This document shows, one piece after another, positions 11,565-44,495 of a stretch of DNA of 64,000 nucleotides. The position numbers were made by a program, and so were the translations under genes. This DNA is from a virus, in IMG/VR virus record IMGVR_UViG_3300023179_009503, positions 10,615 through 74,614 of that record, one strand, 5' to 3'. Below the pieces are notes generated by a model. That model was not told the origin of the DNA. It did no database searches and saw nothing but the letters and a program-made list of their open reading frames with translations. The stretch's first letter is position 1. Every line of letters starts with the position of its first letter.

Positions 11565-12625
11565 CTTTGTGTGGCTTTCTTATAGAGCTCTAAGCAATAA
11601 CGAGACACATCATTCTTTTTATCTATATCTAATAATGTAATAAATTCTTCTATTGCTTTACTCATGTCTACCCCAGATAAATCGTAGGATTGCTCTTCAT
11701 TAACTGTAATAGAACTATCATATAAAGAGTAATCTACAGATAGGTTAAATGGTTTATATGTAGAGATTTTTTGTATTAGTAATTCAATATTATCACTAGA
11801 GATTTTTTTATCTACCTGAAGTTTAACAATATTATTACCAACAAACTCTTTTACTTCTGTTGCGCTTAAAGATTTAAAATTTAATAATTCAGTAATAGTC
11901 AATTTTCTATGTTTTGGAGAATGCGAATTCTCATAAAAATTATAACTTAAATCATTAAAGTCTAAAATATAATAACCCTTAGAAGAACCAGTATCGCCGA
12001 AATCCATTTCAAAGGGGTTGCCTACATATATAATAGTTTTATCACCGTACTTTCTTTCATCCCTAAGATGAAAATGCCCAGTCATAATTAAATTTGCTTT
12101 TGTTAGAAGCTCAGATGTTTTAATACCGTGATCACAGTGTTTATGGCTATTCATTTTGAAGCTCTCAATCTCTAAGTGACCAAACAATACATCTGAAGTC
12201 TTTATATTTTTTAGACCGACTCCCCAAGGTAGAAATGTAGCTGTCTTGCCAATAATTGTATAGGTTGTAGGTTCGCTAACTACAAGAATATTCTTCCAAC
12301 CGTCTAAAATAGAAAGTGAATTAACGTCTGATCTGTCTTTATAAAAAGAGTCATGATTACCAACTAAAATAACAATATTAAACTCATTCCAAATCTTAAG
12401 AATCTGATTAACAACGTGAATCGTATTTACTGCAATTTCGTCCCTGTAATGATATAGATCACCCAATATAAAAATATCTTTTATCTTTTTCTTGTTAAGT
12501 TCTTCTTTAAGCCAGATAGCCCACTTAAGAGCAGTTTCATGCCAAAAAATACTGTTTTGATGTACGCCTATATGTAGATCAGCAATACAACAAACTTTAT
12601 CTGATTTAAGTGTAAGTTCCTTCAC
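11561..12625 (-). CDS. gp47: SbcD/Mre11-like nuclease (gp47)
   Basis: DLHIG, GDLYH, GNHD, GHLE, GHFH metallophosphoesterase motifs. Confidence 0.95.
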   Translation of the reverse strand: MKELTLKSDKVCCIADLHIGVHQNSIFWHETALKWAIWLKEELNKKKIKDIFILGDLYHYRDEIAVNTIHVVNQILKIWNEFNIVILVGNHDSFYKDRSDVNSLSILDGWKNILVVSEPTTYTIIGKTATFLPWGVGLKNIKTSDVLFGHLEIESFKMNSHKHCDHGIKTSELLTKANLIMTGHFHLRDERKYGDKTIIYVGNPFEMDFGDTGSSKGYYILDFNDLSYNFYENSHSPKHRKLTITELLNFKSLSATEVKEFVGNNIVKLQVDKKISSDNIELLIQKISTYKPFNLSVDYSLYDSSITVNEEQSYDLSGVDMSKAIEEFITLLDIDKKNDVSRYCLELYKKATQR

Positions 12626-13242
12626 CCAGTCGAGTTATAGTTATCATCTGTTGGTTCAACATAGATATGTGCATTACCTGCAACATCAGGATCGAGCATT
12701 AAATCGGTATAAACCTTTTCTCTATACTCATTAAGTACGGCGTGATGTTTATTTTCTTTCTTAATTCTATTAATAAACGCATGAAAGGCAATGGTTGTAA
12801 AATACGAGAATGGGCTAAACCCTGTATCAAGTTTAAACTTCTTATTTCTTAATGCGGAAAACATCTTAACAATAGCATCACCTATCATGTCATCTTTATA
12901 AGAGTAGTTAATAAAATTAGGTGCATAAGAAAGACCGTGAGCAATTTTAGTAATACTCTCTCCTAACTTTTGCGTAACATTGCCAGATTTATAGTAACGT
13001 CTAATTTCTTCTTCAAATTCTTTACCGTTAACATAATGAACCTTGTCTTTACCCTTCTTAACTGGTTCAGCAACTGCTGGTAAAGTACCTGTCTTAAGCA
13101 ACTTTTTAAGCTCTGGATCATTCTCAACAGATTCATCTATATCTGTATCGATATCTTCTTTTAAAGCTTTCTCAGGCTTCTTAGAAGCTTTTTTAAGCTT
13201 CTTGGATTTCTTTAATGGTGTGTTTGATTTGTTCTTTTTCAT
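12622..13242 (-). CDS. gp55: Late-transcription sigma factor (gp55)
   Basis: HYVNGKEF...PNFINYSYKDDMIGDA...PFSYFTTIAFHAFINRIKKE; position next to gp47. Confidence 0.92.
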   Translation of the reverse strand: MKKNKSNTPLKKSKKLKKASKKPEKALKEDIDTDIDESVENDPELKKLLKTGTLPAVAEPVKKGKDKVHYVNGKEFEEEIRRYYKSGNVTQKLGESITKIAHGLSYAPNFINYSYKDDMIGDAIVKMFSALRNKKFKLDTGFSPFSYFTTIAFHAFINRIKKENKHHAVLNEYREKVYTDLMLDPDVAGNAHIYVEPTDDNYNSTG

Positions 13243-15042: not shown

Positions 15043-15068
15043 TAACTTAAATAATAGTATATAGTTAT

Positions 15069-15332
15069 ATGAAATCAATAGGTCTATTCGAGTCTAGATT
15101 TTTAAGCCTTTTAGAACAAAATGTAGCTGGAGGTGGGGGTAGCGTTTTTGGTGTAGGGCCTGGTGGCGCTCCTGGGCAATACGGTAATCAATTCCCTTCT
15201 CAAAACGATACAGCCTATGCTCCAGGTGATGCTCGTATCCCAAAATTTTTAGGCTCAAAAAAGAAAAGAGGCAAAAAAGGTCCTTTTATACAGCGTAGGC
15301 CGCTTCCTGGATTAGAGCTAAAAAATAATTAA
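15069..15332 (+). CDS. Small protein carrying a copy of the major capsid protein N-arm
   Basis: Residues 38-59 YGNQFPSQNDTAYAPGDARIPK match gp23 residues 81-102; Lys/Arg-rich tail. Confidence 0.85.
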   Translation: MKSIGLFESRFLSLLEQNVAGGGGSVFGVGPGGAPGQYGNQFPSQNDTAYAPGDARIPKFLGSKKKRGKKGPFIQRRPLPGLELKNN

Positions 15333-15340
15333 GTAACTAC

Positions 15341-15766
15341 GTGGAACTAGGACACTGGATTTTAAGTGAAGGAATAACTATAGACGAAAATACCTTTGGG
15401 TTTATATATGAAATAACAAATACGGTTACAAATAAAAAGTATATTGGTAAAAAACAATGTAAATCAAAATTAAAAAGAAAACCATTAAAGGGTAAAAAAA
15501 ATAAAAGAATTGAAATAAAAGAATCGGATTGGAGAGAATATACAAGTTCTTCGACAGAGTTAAATGAAGACATTGTTAAGTATGGCAAATCTAAATTTAT
15601 TTTTAAAATACTTAAAACTTGCGGATCTAAGTGGGAATTAGCTTATAAAGAAATTTCAGAACAAATATCAAAACAAGTTCTACTTAGAGATGATTACTAT
15701 AATGGAATTATAAACGTAAGAATTGGACGTCCTCCAAAAAATTATCTTGAAAAGATTTTAGGTTGA
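15341..15766 (+). CDS. GIY-YIG domain nuclease (single domain)
   Basis: GFIYEITN...KKYIGKK...Y.SS...E...YYN. Confidence 0.8.
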   Translation: MELGHWILSEGITIDENTFGFIYEITNTVTNKKYIGKKQCKSKLKRKPLKGKKNKRIEIKESDWREYTSSSTELNEDIVKYGKSKFIFKILKTCGSKWELAYKEISEQISKQVLLRDDYYNGIINVRIGRPPKNYLEKILG

Positions 15767-16341: not shown

Positions 16342-16357
16342 TTTAATAAATAATAAT

Positions 16358-16804
16358 ATGACATTTACTGACAAGCTTAATGCATTGTTAAATACATTAA
16401 CAGAAGCGCCTCAACAAGATACAAATACACAGGATGCTGCAGCTCCTGCTCCTGCTGAAGAGCAACCTACTCCTGCTCAGCAGCCCGAACAAGCAGCTAT
16501 TCCCCCTGAAGGTTATGTAGATATGGTAAGGATGCTAGCTAAAGCATTAGTAATGAATATTCCTACTGGGACTATTGATTCGTTGTTCACAACCCCTATA
16601 ACTAAAGAAAACGCAACTACTGTTAGAGAAGGGCTTCAAAGCGCAATTAGATCTAGTGAAACTTCAGAAGATAATGCAATAAGATTGGGTAACCCCGCGT
16701 TTAAAAAATTCGAACAGTCAATAAATGAAAATAACTTTATGGCAAAGTATAAAGAAATTTTAAATGCTATGAAGAAATTTAGCAACGATCCTAAGCTGGG
16801 ATGA
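16358..16804 (+). CDS. Hypothetical, probable virion-internal protein
   Basis: TAAATA-N5-ATG at 16358; MTFTDKLNALLNTLTE|A propeptide-like N-terminus. Confidence 0.75.
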   Translation: MTFTDKLNALLNTLTEAPQQDTNTQDAAAPAPAEEQPTPAQQPEQAAIPPEGYVDMVRMLAKALVMNIPTGTIDSLFTTPITKENATTVREGLQSAIRSSETSEDNAIRLGNPAFKKFEQSINENNFMAKYKEILNAMKKFSNDPKLG

Positions 16805-16805
16805 T

Positions 16806-18392
16806 ATGGCTATCAAAAAAAATAAAAAGCCTTACAGGCCTTTATCTGAAATTTATTTAAAAGAGTCGTTTGCAAGACCTGTACCTTTGCTTCCTAGACA
16901 AACAATTTTAGGGGAAGCAAATGGAATGGCTGAAATATTAATTCAAAAAGACACCGGTGAAGATTTACCAGTATATAAAGTTCCTAATGAAGTGGCTGAT
17001 GAGGTTCTTAAGCGAATTAAAAGAGCAGAACAACAGTTAGGAGATAAAGAAGGGTTTACTGTTGATAAAATTATAGCCCAATGCTTAGAGCTAGACGGTT
17101 GGGCTGGTGAAGGCAAAGGTCAAAACAGTTCAGTATTTAGAGAGGTCGTCAATGCATTTAATGCAGTTGAGCTCAACTATAAAGAATTTAATAAGTTATT
17201 ATCTTTGCAAACGGATAAAGATAATCCTGTAAGAACTGTTTTACTTAATGACTTAAAGCCACATAGTATGGTTGAACTTCTTTCAGACAAATTTAAAGCT
17301 CTTTTTGCTGATCCTGCAGGAGCATTAACTGTACTGCAATCGCTTTGGAGATTAATACCTGATGGTGGTAAAAATGTAAATGTAGGTCCTGGAGAGCTAG
17401 CTTTAACATTAATTAGCGATGCAGTAAAAGGTAAAGAGGGAGACTTACAGTTTGATTTTGGATTAGTTGAAGTTAAAGGTAATAACGCAGCTTTAGGTTC
17501 CGGTAAATATGCAGTGGTTAATACTTATGAAGAGCTTAATAGAATTATGGCTTCTAAAATAGGCGGTGCATCTGTACGGGCTATAAATATCGATAGGCAA
17601 AAATCTATAATCTTAAATTTAATAGATGAACTTATAGCTCAATATGATAAATTTGTTGCAGACCCTGCATCGGTTAAAGCAACGCCTGCAGATACACAAT
17701 TGCATGTAAAAACTAGAGAGTTGCTTAAAAATCTTAAAATAAAAGCAAGCCAAGCTAAGAGTTTTCAGGAACTTGTAAGTGATGTACAAAACTCAGATCT
17801 TAAAGAAGTTAAAAAAACAAGAACAAAGACTCTTCCTGGAGAAAAGGCTATCCTTTTAAAAGAATTAGAATTATTAAGACGTGTAGAAGCAGGTGAGGTA
17901 ACCTCTATAGCCGGGGGTGAGAAAAGTAGATTTAACCCCGCAGTAAATGCATTTTTTAGTAATCCTAACCTTTCCGAAGAAAACAAATTGGAAGGAATAA
18001 AATTTATTGTTTCTGATGAAAAAACTAATAAAGATGAGGTAGCAGAAGTTGCAAAAGAGCTACTTTCATCTTACCCAGATTTATTGACATGGAAAAGTGT
18101 AGGTAAGTCTTATGAGGGCGATTCAACTTCGGATTTAAATAGGTTTATAGGTGCAGTACACTTAGCTGAATATCAACAAGAAAAGAAGTTTAAATACATA
18201 ATATTTTTTAATGCAGATAGAAAAGATATAAATAAATTGCCTACTAGAATAGTTGCGCTTAGTTTTGCTAACAGCTCATTTAAAGAAGATGTAAAGAGAG
18301 TATTCGAGTTTTTTAAAGATAAAGATATTAATGCTTCAGTAAAACTGGGTATCGATAATACTAGAGGGACCGTAAGGATTGCAATATCATGA
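16806..18392 (+). CDS. Hypothetical protein with PD-(D/E)XK-like nuclease motif
   Basis: GPGELAL...GDLQ...VEVKG; N-terminal YLKE|S. Confidence 0.6.
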   Translation: MAIKKNKKPYRPLSEIYLKESFARPVPLLPRQTILGEANGMAEILIQKDTGEDLPVYKVPNEVADEVLKRIKRAEQQLGDKEGFTVDKIIAQCLELDGWAGEGKGQNSSVFREVVNAFNAVELNYKEFNKLLSLQTDKDNPVRTVLLNDLKPHSMVELLSDKFKALFADPAGALTVLQSLWRLIPDGGKNVNVGPGELALTLISDAVKGKEGDLQFDFGLVEVKGNNAALGSGKYAVVNTYEELNRIMASKIGGASVRAINIDRQKSIILNLIDELIAQYDKFVADPASVKATPADTQLHVKTRELLKNLKIKASQAKSFQELVSDVQNSDLKEVKKTRTKTLPGEKAILLKELELLRRVEAGEVTSIAGGEKSRFNPAVNAFFSNPNLSEENKLEGIKFIVSDEKTNKDEVAEVAKELLSSYPDLLTWKSVGKSYEGDSTSDLNRFIGAVHLAEYQQEKKFKYIIFFNADRKDINKLPTRIVALSFANSSFKEDVKRVFEFFKDKDINASVKLGIDNTRGTVRIAIS

Positions 18393-19600
18393 TATCTTTT
18401 AAGCAATTTGTTCTTGAAGGAGGTGCAGCTGGTCATATGGCTCATCCGTTTGATTTGCCTAATGTAAATTCTGGCAAAGATCTTATTAATTTTTTTAATA
18501 AAGCTATTACCAGCTTAACAAAAAAGCCTGCTTCTGTAAAAATTGACGGTGTAAACACTTCTATTAAGCTAATTACGAATAGTGAGGGTAAAAAAGAGTT
18601 TGCTATGGATAGAGGCTCAAATAAACCTGAAGATATAGAAGGTGTTACAATAGCAAGATTAAGTCAAAGATTTCCTGAAGGGCATGGTATGTTAGAAACC
18701 GGTAAAACTGTTTTATCTATCTTCAATTCAGCTCTACCAAATATAGAGAAAGATTTAAAGAAATTAAAAATGTGGGATAATCCAAATATTCTTTTTAATA
18801 TGGAATTTGTTAAAGGCTCTACTAATGTTATAGGCTATGCAACTAACTTTGTAGCAATTCATGGGTTAAACGAAATTATTAAAGTCAAAAGTCCTGTTAG
18901 AGGCAGTGTGAGTAGAGCTTCAAGAGAAATAACTTATGATAAAAAAGCATTGCAGAGTTTAATAGAAAAAGTTAATCCTATTGCTAGAAAGCAAGGTTTT
19001 GATGTGGAGCATGAATTTACTATAAACTTAAAAGAAAAAGTCAATTTTAATAATGCGCTTGATTCCGATTTTACAGTAAATTACGATTCAAAAAACGCGA
19101 TTAAACAGCCCTTAAAAAATTGGCTTGCAAAAGCAAAGAACCCTAGAGCAGAAAAAATAAAATTAACTTCCGGAAAAACTATAAGCGCTATGAGCTTAGA
19201 AAACTTTAAAAATATATCTAGCGGTGTTCCTATGGATCATTATATCGGTAATAACAAAAAAGATATTGAAAAGGCTGTAAACGGTGCAGTATTTTATCAA
19301 GCAACAATTTTACTTGGTGATGCAGTAAAAAATGCTGCATCTTCTGCTTTAGGTTCTTTATCAGCACAAGAAGGTATAGTAATAAGAGATCCTTCAATTT
19401 CTAGCGCACCGGTTAAAATTACTGGAAGTTTTATAACGGGTAAAGAAGCTAGCAAATTCAGAAAGCAAGAAAATGAAGAGGGTATAAAAGGTGTTATATC
19501 TAATACCAATACTGTTTTAAACAAAACTAATTATCAAACTAACCCACCTTTTGGTAAGGAAGGTGCTAGATTAGTACAAACACCTGGAGTACAACTATGA
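18389..19600 (+). CDS. ATP-dependent (RNA) ligase-like nucleotidyltransferase, DUF6267-like
   Basis: Ligase motifs I SVKIDG, III NMEF, IIIa FVAIH, IV EGIVIR, V VKITG; N-terminus MISFKQFVLE|GGAAGHM. Confidence 0.65.
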   Translation: MISFKQFVLEGGAAGHMAHPFDLPNVNSGKDLINFFNKAITSLTKKPASVKIDGVNTSIKLITNSEGKKEFAMDRGSNKPEDIEGVTIARLSQRFPEGHGMLETGKTVLSIFNSALPNIEKDLKKLKMWDNPNILFNMEFVKGSTNVIGYATNFVAIHGLNEIIKVKSPVRGSVSRASREITYDKKALQSLIEKVNPIARKQGFDVEHEFTINLKEKVNFNNALDSDFTVNYDSKNAIKQPLKNWLAKAKNPRAEKIKLTSGKTISAMSLENFKNISSGVPMDHYIGNNKKDIEKAVNGAVFYQATILLGDAVKNAASSALGSLSAQEGIVIRDPSISSAPVKITGSFITGKEASKFRKQENEEGIKGVISNTNTVLNKTNYQTNPPFGKEGARLVQTPGVQL

Positions 19601-20253
19601 AATTTGACCAATTAGTAAATGAAATATTAATGCCTCAAAAGAATAATCTTATTGTTATTTTTCCAGGTAGGTTTCAGCCTTTTCATTTGGGGCATAAACG
19701 CTTTTATGATTTAGCAAAAAAGAAATTTCCGGGTGCTGATTTTTACATAGCTAGCTCTGATATACCGGAAAAAGCTGCAACTAAAGAGCCTGGTCGCTAT
19801 CCTTTTAATTTTGCAGAAAAAAAAGCTATTATGATAGCTGCAGGCATACCTGAAAAAGAAATTGTTCAGGTCAAACAACCTTACAAACCTATAGAAATTT
19901 TAAAAGACTATGATCAAAATTTTGCAAAAGTAATTTATATAGTTGGTGAAAAAGATATGAAAAAGGACCCTAGATTTGCATTTGGCATGACTAAAAAAGG
20001 AACCCCTACTTATTTTCAGCCTTTTAAAAGCTTAAACGAGTTACAGCCTTTTAAAGAAGACGGTGGCCATGGTTATATATACTCTCCTGGAACTATAGAA
20101 TTTAATGTTAACGGAAAAAATATTACTAGTGCATCTGAATTAAGAGAGCTATATAAAAATTCTAACGAGCAAAGTAAAAAAGAAATTATTACACAAATTC
20201 TAGGTAAATTCGATACAAAGATTTATAATCTATTTAACGCAAAAATTATTTAA
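19597..20253 (+). CDS. HIGH-family nucleotidyltransferase (cytidylyltransferase/NMNAT-like)
   Basis: FPGRFQPFHLGH, PFNFAEK, VGEKD, TSASELR. Confidence 0.85.
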   Translation: MKFDQLVNEILMPQKNNLIVIFPGRFQPFHLGHKRFYDLAKKKFPGADFYIASSDIPEKAATKEPGRYPFNFAEKKAIMIAAGIPEKEIVQVKQPYKPIEILKDYDQNFAKVIYIVGEKDMKKDPRFAFGMTKKGTPTYFQPFKSLNELQPFKEDGGHGYIYSPGTIEFNVNGKNITSASELRELYKNSNEQSKKEIITQILGKFDTKIYNLFNAKII

Positions 20254-20888: not shown

Positions 20889-20920
20889 ATAAATATTTAT
20901 TCAAAATTATAAATAATTTT
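20889..20920. promoter_or_regulatory. Back-to-back late promoters
   Basis: TAAATA on - (20899..20894) and TATAAATA on + (20908..20915), each 5 nt from an ATG. Confidence 0.75.
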
Positions 20921-21208
20921 ATGTTATTCGAAAAAGCTTTTCTACATGCTCTTGAACAAGATATAATTGAAGAAAAAAAAGGTGCCAGGTGTACTAAAGT
21001 TACAGGTCAGCAATCTTCTACTAGATCTGATAAAAAATATATGCGCTGTACACGTGTAGATGGTAAGTTGAAAAGAATACATTATGGCGATCCAAATTTA
21101 CGTATAAAAAAATCTAACCCCAAGAAACGTAAATCATTTAGAGCGCGTCATAAATGCTCGTCCGCAAAACCAGGTACTGCAAAATATTATAGTTGTAAGA
21201 ACTGGTAA
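20921..21208 (+). CDS. Basic Cys-containing small protein (DUF6321-like)
   Basis: YGDPNL...RKSFRARHKC...YYSCKNW; TATAAATA-N5-ATG at 20921. Confidence 0.75.
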   Translation: MLFEKAFLHALEQDIIEEKKGARCTKVTGQQSSTRSDKKYMRCTRVDGKLKRIHYGDPNLRIKKSNPKKRKSFRARHKCSSAKPGTAKYYSCKNW

Positions 21209-40521: not shown

Positions 40522-40982
40522 TGATACCCTTAAATAAAAGCGATAAATTTAGACAGGGATTATTTCGTCCAAAAAATACGAGTAAATACGTTGGCCGCAC
40601 TCCACCAGTTTATAGATCAGGGTGGGAATTAAAATTTTTTAGATGGTGTGATGAGAATACTAATGTAGTTGAATGGGCAAGCGAGGCAGTAATAATACCT
40701 TATACAAATCCGCTAGATGGTAAAGTTCATAGATATTATACTGATGGTATAATTGCTATTAAAGAAAATGGTATATTAAACAAATATATTATAGAAATTA
40801 AACCATCTACTCAAGTAGAAGCTCCAAAACCTGGCAAAAAAAAGCATAGTACTGTAATTTATGAAAATAAGAGATATATACAGAATATGGCTAAGTGGGA
40901 ATCTGCTAAAAAGTGGTGTAACCAAAGAAATTATAAATTCTTAATATTAACAGAAAAAGAATTGGGACTTAATAAATATTAA
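40521..40982 (+). CDS. gp4: Head completion nuclease (gp4, TnsA-like)
   Basis: PKN..KY.G, YRSGWE..F..WCD, WASE...IPY, HRYYTD, IEIKP, AKW. Confidence 0.92.
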   Translation: MIPLNKSDKFRQGLFRPKNTSKYVGRTPPVYRSGWELKFFRWCDENTNVVEWASEAVIIPYTNPLDGKVHRYYTDGIIAIKENGILNKYIIEIKPSTQVEAPKPGKKKHSTVIYENKRYIQNMAKWESAKKWCNQRNYKFLILTEKELGLNKY

Positions 40983-40983
40983 T

Positions 40984-41655
40984 ATGGCGCTTCGTCTACT
41001 AGTCGAAACACCTGCTTCTGAAGAGCAGTTTGAATATATTTTAGAGGAAAAAAACCCTAAAGAGCCCGCAAAACTCTATATTCAAGGTCCTTACATGGTT
41101 TGTAATGAAGTAAATAAGAACCAGCGTATTTACGAGCGTGATGATATGCGTCGTGAAGTTGAACGCTATATAAAAGAAATGGTTTCAACAAACAGAGCGA
41201 TGGGCGAGCTTAATCATCCCACATCCGCAGAAGTTAATCTAGAGAGAGCCTGCCATCTTGTTACAAATTTAAAATTTGAAGGAAACCAGGTAGTAGGAAG
41301 ATCACAAGTACTTTCAACACCGATGGGTCAGATTGTACGTAATCTTATCAATGATGGTGTAAAGGTAGGAATGTCTAGCCGCGCACTTGGAAAATTAAAT
41401 GAAGAAACAAATGGTATTAATCGTGTAACAGATATGAGATTAATTGCTGTTGATTGTGTAGCTGATCCGTCATGCCCTAAAGCATTTGTAAATGGAATAT
41501 TAGAAAGCAAGCAATTTATTTTAAATACTAAAGGTGAACTAGAAGAAGTTTATGATGCTTTCGAAAAATCTATTAATAATTTACCTCGAAAAGACGTACA
41601 AGCTTATTTAAAAGAGCAAATTTTGACGTTTTTTAAATTTTTAAGAACTACTTAA
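40984..41655 (+). CDS. gp21: Prohead maturation protease (gp21)
   Basis: NKNQRIY, GELNHP, TPMG, GMSSRALG, DCVADPS...AFV. Confidence 0.95.
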   Translation: MALRLLVETPASEEQFEYILEEKNPKEPAKLYIQGPYMVCNEVNKNQRIYERDDMRREVERYIKEMVSTNRAMGELNHPTSAEVNLERACHLVTNLKFEGNQVVGRSQVLSTPMGQIVRNLINDGVKVGMSSRALGKLNEETNGINRVTDMRLIAVDCVADPSCPKAFVNGILESKQFILNTKGELEEVYDAFEKSINNLPRKDVQAYLKEQILTFFKFLRTT

Positions 41656-41703
41656 TATATGAAAAGCCGTAGAAAAAATAGCAAAGGCAAAATAAATAAT
41701 TCT

Positions 41704-41874
41704 ATGGCAAAGGCTAAGAAAGACTCAAGGATTGACGAAAATAATAATATTGTTAAATTTTTAAAGTCAATTTCTCAAAAAAATTATTCTGAAGCTAATA
41801 AATATTTACAGAGCGTCATCGATTCGAAGATTAAATCTAAGATTGGTGGCTCTCTAAAAGAAAAATTATTTTAA
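41704..41874 (+). CDS. Small prohead-core-type protein
   Basis: Between gp21 and gp22; TAAATA-N5-ATG fixes start at 41704. Confidence 0.55.
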   Translation: MAKAKKDSRIDENNNIVKFLKSISQKNYSEANKYLQSVIDSKIKSKIGGSLKEKLF

Positions 41875-41877
41875 TTT

Positions 41878-42762
41878 ATGGAAACAAACATTAGCAAAAC
41901 TCTAAAAGAAGCGACTAAAGATATTCTCACAGAGGATGTTCTTAAGGAAATCGAAACTGCATTTGAAACATCAGTTAATGAAAAAGTTCAAATTCATGTT
42001 GAGAAAGCTCTCGCTGAACAAGATGCTGATTATTCCAAAAAATTAGAGACTTTAGTAGAAGCAATAGATACAGATCATACCAACAAGCTTAAGAAGGTTG
42101 TTGAAGCAATTGATGCTGATCGTGCTGCTAAGCTAAAGACGGTAGTAGAAAAATATGAAGCAGCATTGAATAAAGAAGCTTCTGAGTTCAAGAATAGCAT
42201 TGTTGATGAAATAAGCAAATATCTTGATCTCTATATTGATGAAAAACTACCCTCAGCTTCAATTACTGAAGCTGTAAAGAATAAAAAGGCTATTTCTCTT
42301 TTAGAGAATTTACGCCAGGTTCTTGCTGTTGATATGGCACTCGCTAAGGATAATATCCGCGATGCTGTAGTTGATGGGAAGAATAAAATAGATGAAGCTG
42401 CTAGCCAGCTTGAAGCCGCTACAAAAGAAGTAGCTAGATTGTCAGAAGAGAATAAGAAGCTCTCCGCTAAAGTAATGCTTGAGGAAAGAGTTTCTAAGCT
42501 CGAAGAAGACAAAAAGACTTACATGAAGAAAATGCTTAATGGTAAGTCTGCAGAGTTTATTAAAGAGAACTTTGACTACACTTTGAAGCTGTTTGAAAAG
42601 ACAGAAGAAGAGCGGCTGAAAGCATTAAAAACGGAAGCGGTTTCTGAAACTGTATCTGCACAAGTTGATAGACCAGTAATTGAAGAAGCTGTACAGCCCC
42701 AGGAAGTAAATGAAGCAGATCCAATGTTTAATACTTACATGGGCGAGCTTTCGAAGTATTAA
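41878..42762 (+). CDS. gp22: Prohead scaffold protein (gp22)
   Basis: Glu/Lys-rich coiled coil, C-terminal DPM..Y; directly upstream of MCP. Confidence 0.88.
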   Translation: METNISKTLKEATKDILTEDVLKEIETAFETSVNEKVQIHVEKALAEQDADYSKKLETLVEAIDTDHTNKLKKVVEAIDADRAAKLKTVVEKYEAALNKEASEFKNSIVDEISKYLDLYIDEKLPSASITEAVKNKKAISLLENLRQVLAVDMALAKDNIRDAVVDGKNKIDEAASQLEAATKEVARLSEENKKLSAKVMLEERVSKLEEDKKTYMKKMLNGKSAEFIKENFDYTLKLFEKTEEERLKALKTEAVSETVSAQVDRPVIEEAVQPQEVNEADPMFNTYMGELSKY

Positions 42763-42839: not shown

Positions 42840-44363
42840 ATGGCTAAACAAATTCGTCCTACACAGGCTTACATTGATGAGTCACGCGCTAAGGTACTTC
42901 TCGAGAAGTGGGGTCCAGTTCTGGATTACTCTTCCGATAACGTCCGCGCTATCGAAGACGATCACACACGCTTAAACACCGCTATCCTTTTGGAAAACCA
43001 AGAGAAGTGGTGCTTTGAGGCTAGCAACACAGTCGGTGGAAACACTGGCGTATTCGGCGGCGCTATTAATAATGGCGCTTACGGTAACCAGTTCCCTTCA
43101 CAGAATGATAATGCTTACGCCCCAGGCGATGCGCGTCTACCGAAGATCCTCATCCCGATGATTCGCCGTACGTTCCCTGAGTTGATCACTAACGAAATCG
43201 TTGGTGTTCAGCCCATGAGCGGTCCAGTAGGTCTTGCTTTTGCCCTCCGTTATAAGTACGAACCCACCAGCTTAGGTTACAATCCCGATGGCAAGATCGA
43301 CGCAAGCAACTCTACAACAAAGTATGCTAGCTCGTTCTTACAGTCATTGTCGACAAACCCTGAGCTAGGGTATCAGTTCCTCGCTTCCGGCTTTACCGGA
43401 ACGCAGCAGCCACAATTGTCGGGTAATTCCGACTTCACAATGCTAACACAAGATCAGGGTGTTGCTCAGCTACTCGGCCAGTTCGAGTTGAATGCAAACA
43501 TTCCTCAGGTCGTTGTAAGCTTTGAGAAGACAGCAGTCGAGGCCGGCACACGCCGTCTCGCCGCTCGCTGGTCAGTTGAGCTCGAGCAGGATCTTAAGAA
43601 CATGAACGGTATCGATATCGATACTGAGCTCACAAACGCTATGTCGTATGAGCTACAGGCCGAAATCGACCGTGAAATGATCATTCGCATGATCCAGACA
43701 GCACTCAATGCTGGCTACGGCACAGGTTATTCAATCTGGTCGCCCGTATCAGCAGACGGTCGCTGGCTCGTTGAACGTAATCGTGACTTCTATCAGAGAC
43801 TAATCGTCGAAGCTAATCGTATTGCAGTACGTAATCGCCGTGGTTCTGCCAACTTCGTTGTTGCAACACCTCGCGTTTGCGCTATCCTAGAAATGCTCCC
43901 TGAATTCCAGTGGGTACCAGTACAGGGTAATGTTAATACACAGCCCGTCGGTGTTGCAAAAGTAGGTTCGCTGGGTGGCAGGTTCAACGTTTACCGTGAT
44001 ACTCGTACAGAAGCTCAGGCTGAAGCTTATAATACTGGTGGCATCCCTCCTGGTAATTTCCAGGGTCAGGGCTGGCCAACAGCTTATGGCACCCAGAACT
44101 TCTCGCGTCAAGTACGCCTCGAGTATGCACTCCTTGGTTACAAGGGCCCGGAATTCTACGACACTGGTATCATCTATTGTCCGTACATCCCGGTAATGGT
44201 TCAGAGAACGATTGGTCCTAATGATTTTGCTCCTCGCGTTGGCTTACTAACACGTTATGGTGTAGTAGACAACATCTTTGGTGCTAATCTTTACTACCAC
44301 GTCATTATTCTCAAGAACCTCGGTACTCCGTTTGTTCCTGGAACACAGTCGGTCTACTTCTAA
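42840..44363 (+). CDS. gp23: Major capsid protein (gp23)
   Basis: LLENQ, IRRTFP, GVQPMSGPVGLAFALR, RRLAARWSVELEQDLK, EIDRE, YCPYIP, TRYG. Confidence 0.98.
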   Translation: MAKQIRPTQAYIDESRAKVLLEKWGPVLDYSSDNVRAIEDDHTRLNTAILLENQEKWCFEASNTVGGNTGVFGGAINNGAYGNQFPSQNDNAYAPGDARLPKILIPMIRRTFPELITNEIVGVQPMSGPVGLAFALRYKYEPTSLGYNPDGKIDASNSTTKYASSFLQSLSTNPELGYQFLASGFTGTQQPQLSGNSDFTMLTQDQGVAQLLGQFELNANIPQVVVSFEKTAVEAGTRRLAARWSVELEQDLKNMNGIDIDTELTNAMSYELQAEIDREMIIRMIQTALNAGYGTGYSIWSPVSADGRWLVERNRDFYQRLIVEANRIAVRNRRGSANFVVATPRVCAILEMLPEFQWVPVQGNVNTQPVGVAKVGSLGGRFNVYRDTRTEAQAEAYNTGGIPPGNFQGQGWPTAYGTQNFSRQVRLEYALLGYKGPEFYDTGIIYCPYIPVMVQRTIGPNDFAPRVGLLTRYGVVDNIFGANLYYHVIILKNLGTPFVPGTQSVYF

Positions 44364-44451: not shown

Positions 44452-44495
44452 ATGTTTAAATTCAAAAAAAACACATAAAAAGAATAAATATTTGT

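Follow-up and report, generated by a model that had tools for sequence, protein, structure and literature searches.

A small basic protein encoded beside uvsY in uncultured phages carries a copy of the mature N-terminus of the cognate major capsid protein

A small open reading frame, ORF87, is encoded beside the uvsY gene in the window, the term being used here for the whole stretch of 64,000 nucleotides of DNA from an uncultured T4-like phage that was analysed. Its product combines a leader, a copy of the N-terminus of the mature major capsid protein (gp23) and a strongly basic tail, and its gene is separated by 22 kb from the module that encodes the phage head. The features concerned are, by position in the window:

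12622-13242, gp55-type late sigma factor
15046-15053 (+), late-promoter-like box CTTAAATA, 23 nt upstream of the ORF87 start
15069-15332 (+), open reading frame of ORF87 (P0001), a small basic protein of 87 aa
15069-15116 (+), ORF87 leader, residues 1-16, a predicted helix with LFE and LLE
15117-15245 (+), ORF87 residues 17-59, copy of the mature N-terminus of gp23
15246-15332 (+), ORF87 residues 60-87, Lys/Arg run and tail, pI 11.8
20921-21208 (+), P0042, a second, probably late small basic protein with an ORF87-type leader (leader matrix)
40984-41655 (+), T4-type prohead maturation protease (phrog_207, E = 1.5e-57)
41878-42762 (+), putative scaffold (gp22-like) protein between protease and gp23 (weak phrog_237 match, E = 5e-4)
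42840-44363 (+), gp23, the major capsid protein, 507 aa (Pfam Gp23, E = 3e-88)
43011-43187 (+), gp23 residues 58-116, the segment copied by ORF87 (hhalign)

Genes of the ORF87 type are always divergent from uvsY, with uvsW behind uvsY, and are followed downstream by a SegE-like GIY-YIG gene and a 190-aa ORF; ORF87 has a positional orthologue in every related genome examined. No gene occurs at the equivalent position in the T4 uvsY neighbourhood or in phage Melnitz. The SegE-type GIY-YIG gene directly after the small gene, located at 15341-15766 (+) in this window and at L078:6662-7072, L117:2216-2647, L101:1767-2198 and L222:2172-2423 in relatives, keeps its position across genomes that share only about 80 % identity in gp23, which is unusual for a mobile homing endonuclease, and T4 segE likewise lies beside uvsW.

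The 26-nt gap between uvsY and ORF87 contains the box CTTAAATA, and a late-type box also precedes the small gene in loci that have diverged. Of the 59 gene starts, 21 have a box reading NATAAATA or NTTAAATA in the 30 nt before them, where about one would be expected; the portal, protease and tail-fibre genes are among these. The conserved late-type box, together with the encoded gp55-type sigma factor, suggests that ORF87 is expressed late. The late-type box often begins only 13-15 nt before the ATG (e.g. 16345-16352, 20908-20915, 40971-40978 and 44483-44490), and the starts with this spacing have no Shine-Dalgarno sequence, suggesting that many late mRNAs may be leaderless or nearly so.

Searches of Pfam and PHROGs with ORF87 gave no match. 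When it is compared with the gp23 encoded in the same window, BLASTP aligns ORF87 residues 18-67 with gp23 residues 63-110 (29/50 identities, E = 1e-14), and a profile-profile comparison (hhalign) of 40 ORF87 homologues (A2) with 35 gp23 sequences (A3) aligns ORF87 residues 14-83 with gp23 residues 58-116 at 99.6 % probability (E = 2.5e-24), with a single 10-residue gap that corresponds to the ORF87 lysine run. In this alignment E16 of ORF87 is placed on E60 of gp23, LLE followed by Q falling on CFE followed by A, and the tail sequence I-Q-R-R-P-L-P-G-L is aligned with gp23 residues 108-116. The span indicates that the copy runs from the presumed cut through the mature N-terminus and reaches into the conserved R-R-x-F/L-P stretch. 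The homology is restricted to gp23 residues 58-116, which encompass the maturation cut, the equivalent of the N-fist and the start of the N-arm, while the HK97-fold body of gp23 (PF07068) is wholly absent from ORF87, which does not match the Pfam model of this family. Within residues 17-59 of ORF87 a Gly-rich part comes first, then a segment that is specific to the lineage, and then the constant core YAPGDAR-x-PK. The leader contains two candidate prohead-protease sites, LFE (residues 6-8) and LLE (residues 14-16), and AlphaFold2 predicts a helix at residues 6-18, with the remainder disordered; the presumed mature part (residues 17-87) has a pI of 10.5.

The original prediction had described ORF87 residues 38-59 (nt 15180-15245) as identical to gp23 residues 81-102 (nt 43080-43145) at 20 of 22 positions, with third-base differences in 12 of the 20 common codons, and these values proved exact on re-checking; the upstream alignment of LLE with CFE and the Lys/Arg-rich tail (nine K/R within residues 63-87) were likewise recovered. 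Its description of the protein as a mimic of the N-terminal arm needs to be narrowed. A stand-alone copy of the mature gp23 N-terminus is indeed present, but alignment of this gp23 with that of T4 places the copied stretch at T4 residues 66 to about 95, extending slightly beyond, and thus at the N-fist and the first part of the N-arm and not at the whole N-arm. ORF87 is best explained as a paralogue of the gp23 gene's 5' portion that is probably expressed late.

A word-indexed search yielded 39 clusters of ORF87-like proteins of 78-88 aa, and an exhaustive profile search extended the family to at least 169 representatives (50 % identity), almost all of which have lengths of 55-125 aa. All members derive from metagenomes and uncultured phages; three of them found no tblastn match among 50,697 deposited phage genomes, and the closest cultured relatives of this gp23 share only about 33 % identity with it. 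The order of parts is constant across the family: a leader, [LI]xE, N-x-A-G-G, a Gly-rich part and a variable segment are followed by Y-A-P-G-D-A-R-x-P-K-x-L-G, a Lys/Arg run and an [IV]-x-R-R tail, which in some members continues in a gp23 N-arm-like manner. The leader, lysine run and tail are conserved and without counterpart in gp23, and hhalign of the family against T4 gp23 gave no match, as expected. Nei-Gojobori pN/pS among 32 orthologues is 0.40 overall and 0.18 in the motif (pN 0.126 versus pS 0.71), with pS saturated and the motif value overstating the constraint, the collection of homologues having leaned on this same conserved motif. The profile used for the locus scan was derived from a 12-member subset; the 42 divergent members were aligned too loosely. 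Together these comparisons indicate that the gene is real and that purifying selection on its motif is strong.

The small gene and gp23 could be paired from the same contig in 14 genomes. Local alignment scores of ten pairs favoured the cognate combinations (p = 0.004), and a second test was restricted to the 16 residues upstream of the invariant YAPGDAR, in which one canonical genome and six variant lineages were permuted. Among the 5040 permutations of these seven lineages the cognate pairing was the single best, and 13 pairs, which are not mutually independent, gave p of about 1e-5; in five of the seven lineages the small protein and its own gp23 each ranked the other first. Unpaired gp23 genes and unpaired small proteins also show mirrored spectra of variant segments. 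The exceptions are G012, G013 and G031, where the segment of the small protein has drifted and gp23 is canonical, and single P-to-Q or P-to-A changes in gp23 that have no mirror in the small protein. The body of gp23 is nearly invariant in the clade, and the copied segment is among the most variable parts of the protein.

Between 55 and 76 % of the identical residues are coded by different codons in the two genes (e.g. Ser AGT versus TCT and Arg AGA versus CGT), indicating that the likeness between the small protein and gp23 is held at the protein level. Recent gene conversion is ruled out by these codon differences and by the saturated synonymous sites. The co-variation may reflect co-evolution, or else an ancient conversion or repeated rounds of duplication whose products purifying selection then preserved, which would look the same. 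The contention that the match is maintained by selection on the protein and is not a recent DNA duplication is thus borne out by the codon differences and the motif pN and pS, and two proposed checks, a search for homologues and a comparison of the motif with the gp23 of each relative, came out in its favour with the cluster count and the permutation result, save for the three genomes named above. Lineage-by-lineage co-variation constitutes the strongest evolutionary argument so far for a functional resemblance between ORF87 and the N-terminus of gp23.

An [LI]xE motif immediately precedes the copied segment (residues 9-20) in 74 of the 84 family members, spread over all deep branches, where shuffled sequences give 9.5 on average and 18 at most, with the proviso that the motif is short and that its conservation among related sequences does not amount to independent evidence. 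Its frequency and its alignment with the cut site of gp23 make a cut after the Glu in ORF87 plausible. The same type of leader recurs on P0042: a 13-position matrix derived from the ORF87 family scores 28.2 bits at the N-terminus of this protein, compared with a maximum of 1.1 over 15,990 internal positions. P0042 is a Cys-rich, basic protein of 95 aa, encoded behind two TATAAATA boxes, with a core that matches phrog_7595. Its family, of at least 467 clusters, combines a constant Cys-containing core with hypervariable leaders, of which 118 of 121 contain [LI]xE, typically abutting the core, and the leader types run parallel in the ORF87 and P0042 families. As P0042 shows, the leader alone could suffice for targeting, in which case the idea of loading gives no account of the gp23-like segment. 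A run of late-type genes at 16358-20253 (+) also encodes proteins with N-termini that resemble removable leaders ending in Glu; these match no Pfam family, and only the last has a PHROG match, to a cytidyltransferase.

Eight clusters of fused proteins (162-198 aa) contain the whole ORF87 module followed by diverse, unrelated C-terminal domains, and further N- and C-terminal fusions of the module exist. The junction between module and cargo reads QRR-x-L-x-E in all eight fused forms, where stand-alone forms have G. No Pfam family was found above the cut-off for the cargo domains. In one 220-aa fused form (L078:6001-6669 and protein P0361) the module is followed by an acidic linker and then by a C-terminal domain that contains the motif D-G-N-H-R and is weakly similar to the ParB/Srx-fold protein SbnI (E = 0.018).

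In the head module, the T4-type prohead protease (40984-41655) is the presumed processing enzyme of ORF87, and the scaffold protein is a candidate for the binding partner shared by ORF87 and the N-terminus of gp23, a role suggested by T4 genetics (PMC9546572). A 71-aa lysine-rich ORF at 41659-41874 (+), between the protease and scaffold genes, matches no family and is possibly a small core protein. The near-complete relatives (G012, G013, G001 and G026) each have one Gp23-family gene, and no gp24-type vertex protein is detectable in them with the Pfam model. In the T4 head before expansion, gp23 residues 66-97 lie on the inside and are disordered; they probably contact the gp22 core, and the head-length mutations A66D, A94V and G97S are located within them (PMC9546572). 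On expansion this stretch moves outward and forms the N-arm and N-fist, elements that bind to four subunits and contribute to the Soc site (PMC9546572; PMC9958956). The prohead protease of T4 cleaves after L/I-x-E and strips the internal proteins of their 10-residue targeting leader (PMC9026906).

By analogy, ORF87 would be brought into the assembling prohead by its leader, and possibly by the gp23-like segment too, presumably through the contacts that the N-terminal region of gp23 makes with the scaffolding core. The T4-type prohead protease would then cut ORF87 after the leader, as it does gp23, and the product would be a disordered, very basic peptide of about 7 kDa, which might be kept with the DNA or the shell or might exit via the capsomer pores. 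The module in the fused lineages could act additionally as a tag for the loading and release of cargo, with the LxE at the junction as the release site. Prohead targeting, cleavage, binding partner and peptide fate are all inferred from such parallels. A complex prediction with two copies of gp23 (residues 103-507) and ORF87 (residues 17-87) returned a score of 0.01, a result that gives no answer and counts neither for nor against binding. The preferred reading, to which a probability of roughly one half is attached, is that ORF87 is a prohead-incorporated, protease-processed head peptide or loading module.

Several other roles have to be weighed against this, among them the three conjectured in the original prediction (filling of portal-vertex sites, tethering of DNA and immune decoy). 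The processed N-fist copy might, as that prediction mainly held, be a structural stand-in that docks in N-fist or N-arm sites of the mature lattice to which no subunit donates its own segment, such as those beside the portal, its lysine tail tying the DNA to the shell. This is unlikely: in the expanded T4 capsid the copied segment makes contact with four neighbouring subunits (PMC9958956), a lattice contact would agree with the co-variation between the small protein and its cognate gp23, and the ORF87 tail is basic, but the N-fist of T4 finishes on the outside of the shell, a core peptide processed by the protease would start from the inside, the fused cargo forms and the shared leader are left unexplained, and a segment that varies beside a nearly invariant gp23 body is odd for a contact with that body. 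Docking at gp24-vertex sites was rejected, as the single Gp23-family gene in near-complete relatives argues that there are no gp24 vertices to leave empty sites.

It is similarly doubtful that ORF87 is a transient regulator of assembly that competes with gp23, either for the scaffold core (against the N-terminus of gp23) or for the protease (against its cut site), and so tunes nucleation, head size or the timing of maturation before the peptide is degraded or expelled. Such a role would accord with the T4 head-length mutations, which are located in gp22 and in the corresponding residues of gp23 (PMC9546572), with the effects of the small T4 core proteins gp67 and gp68 on head shape (PMC9026906), and with the predicted disorder of ORF87, the T4 capsomer pores of 14-17 Å allowing peptide exit. 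The conserved lysine run and tail would, however, have no obvious part in competition, and the fused cargo forms suggest delivery and not regulation.

A broader proposal holds that the peptide matches the gp23 of its own phage and serves as a decoy or substitute for the most variable, exposed portion of that protein, the free copy masking this segment from host capsid sensors or replacing it in the lattice or on the scaffold. This is improbable; if true, it would represent the first virus-encoded, co-evolving mimic of a virus's own capsid protein. An immune decoy in the strict sense, in which the free copy occupies or blunts a host sensor of the N-terminal segment of newly made capsid protein, is improbable as well. 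Capsid proteins trigger bacterial immunity (CapRel, PMC9712102), and the need to match the epitope of its own phage would yield co-variation of the kind seen, in a segment among the most variable of an otherwise very conserved gp23; the probable late co-expression of the small gene with gp23 would fit too. A decoy does not, however, account for the [LI]xE leader, for the same leader on P0042 or for the LxE at the cargo junctions, and conservation of the design as far as T4 argues for a core assembly role. That ORF87 is a non-functional remnant, a foreign gp23 fragment dragged in by the adjacent GIY-YIG homing endonuclease, can be dismissed, for although a SegE-like gene follows directly at 15341-15766 and the synonymous differences could come from a foreign donor, the idea is refuted by the breadth and constraint of a family with positional orthologues in every related genome examined, at least 169 clusters at 50 % identity and a low pN/pS, whose members also have a leader, a lysine run and a tail that are conserved and absent from gp23.

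If the preferred reading, a processed head peptide or loading module, is correct, the part of gp23 that is imitated is one that contacts the scaffold and is later exposed on the surface, and the copy is kept matched to it as the segment evolves. An unrecognised player would be added to one of the best-studied virus assembly pathways, with a bearing on the control of head size and maturation, and the module would offer a natural loading tag for putting proteins into capsids.

Among the known T4 components, gp67 and gp68 are small core proteins that are cut by gp21 and have roles in head shape, but gp67 is acidic and their genes are located between the portal and protease genes, whereas ORF87 lies beside uvsY and has no PHROG match. 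As a precedent for likeness to gp23, gp67 was considered and set aside, its faint local likeness just before both cut sites not being significant (E = 0.6). The internal proteins IPI, IPII and IPIII and the Alt protein of T4 have a short N-terminal leader that is cut at L/I-x-E by the prohead protease, and the internal proteins are small, basic and packed with the DNA, with a leader that is portable between unrelated proteins (PMC9026906; PMC3012670). ORF87 is similar to them, at the motif level only, in its leader ending in an L/I-x-E site, and in the portability of this leader, which recurs on P0042. The mature internal proteins, however, show no sequence relation to ORF87, which is encoded outside the ip locus and has a copy of the capsid protein as its body.

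The closest parallel is found in the product of T4 gene 61.1, a 54-aa protein (phrog_1823) annotated as a hypothetical protein, and a search of open-access papers and preprints found none on its function. The remark in the original prediction that it knew of no described equivalent needs qualifying, as a T4 gene of the same design is already annotated. Like ORF87, gp61.1 consists of a leader, here ending in I-K-E, a copy of the gp23 cut and N-fist, and a lysine run (P-K-K-K-K); its residues 2-38 share 17/37 identities with residues 57-93 of T4 gp23 (E = 6e-9). Its leader resembles the 10-residue targeting sequence of IPII and IPIII, a leader confirmed twice in the T4 genome, and its junction E-D-M-V-A-G is common to several ORF87 relatives. 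The gp61.1 gene differs in adjoining the primase gene and not uvsY, and the protein in having an acidic tail in place of the QRR-type, N-arm-like end of ORF87. The hhalign comparison of the ORF87 family with gp61.1 covers 17 columns, in the leader and junction only (E = 1.8e-4, 49 % probability). One ORF87 relative matches phrog_1823, in the leader only (E = 0.005), while ORF87 and four of the five relatives tested do not match it at E <= 1, and family searches of five related genomes gave no phrog_1823 match. The single phrog_2086 match in these five genomes is a 153-aa ORF (L222:1297-1758) of G027, a complete relative of 248 kb; it lies three genes downstream of the module gene and matches the N-terminal domain of phrog_2086, which is the long form of T4 gp61.1. 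The sequence homology between gp61.1 and ORF87 is accordingly borderline, and common family membership is not established, but the two are alike in architecture. Should the proposed role be correct, T4-type phages as far apart as T4 of E. coli and the members of a large aquatic clade, as yet uncultured, retain a small mimic of the N-terminus of the capsid protein that each of them encodes.
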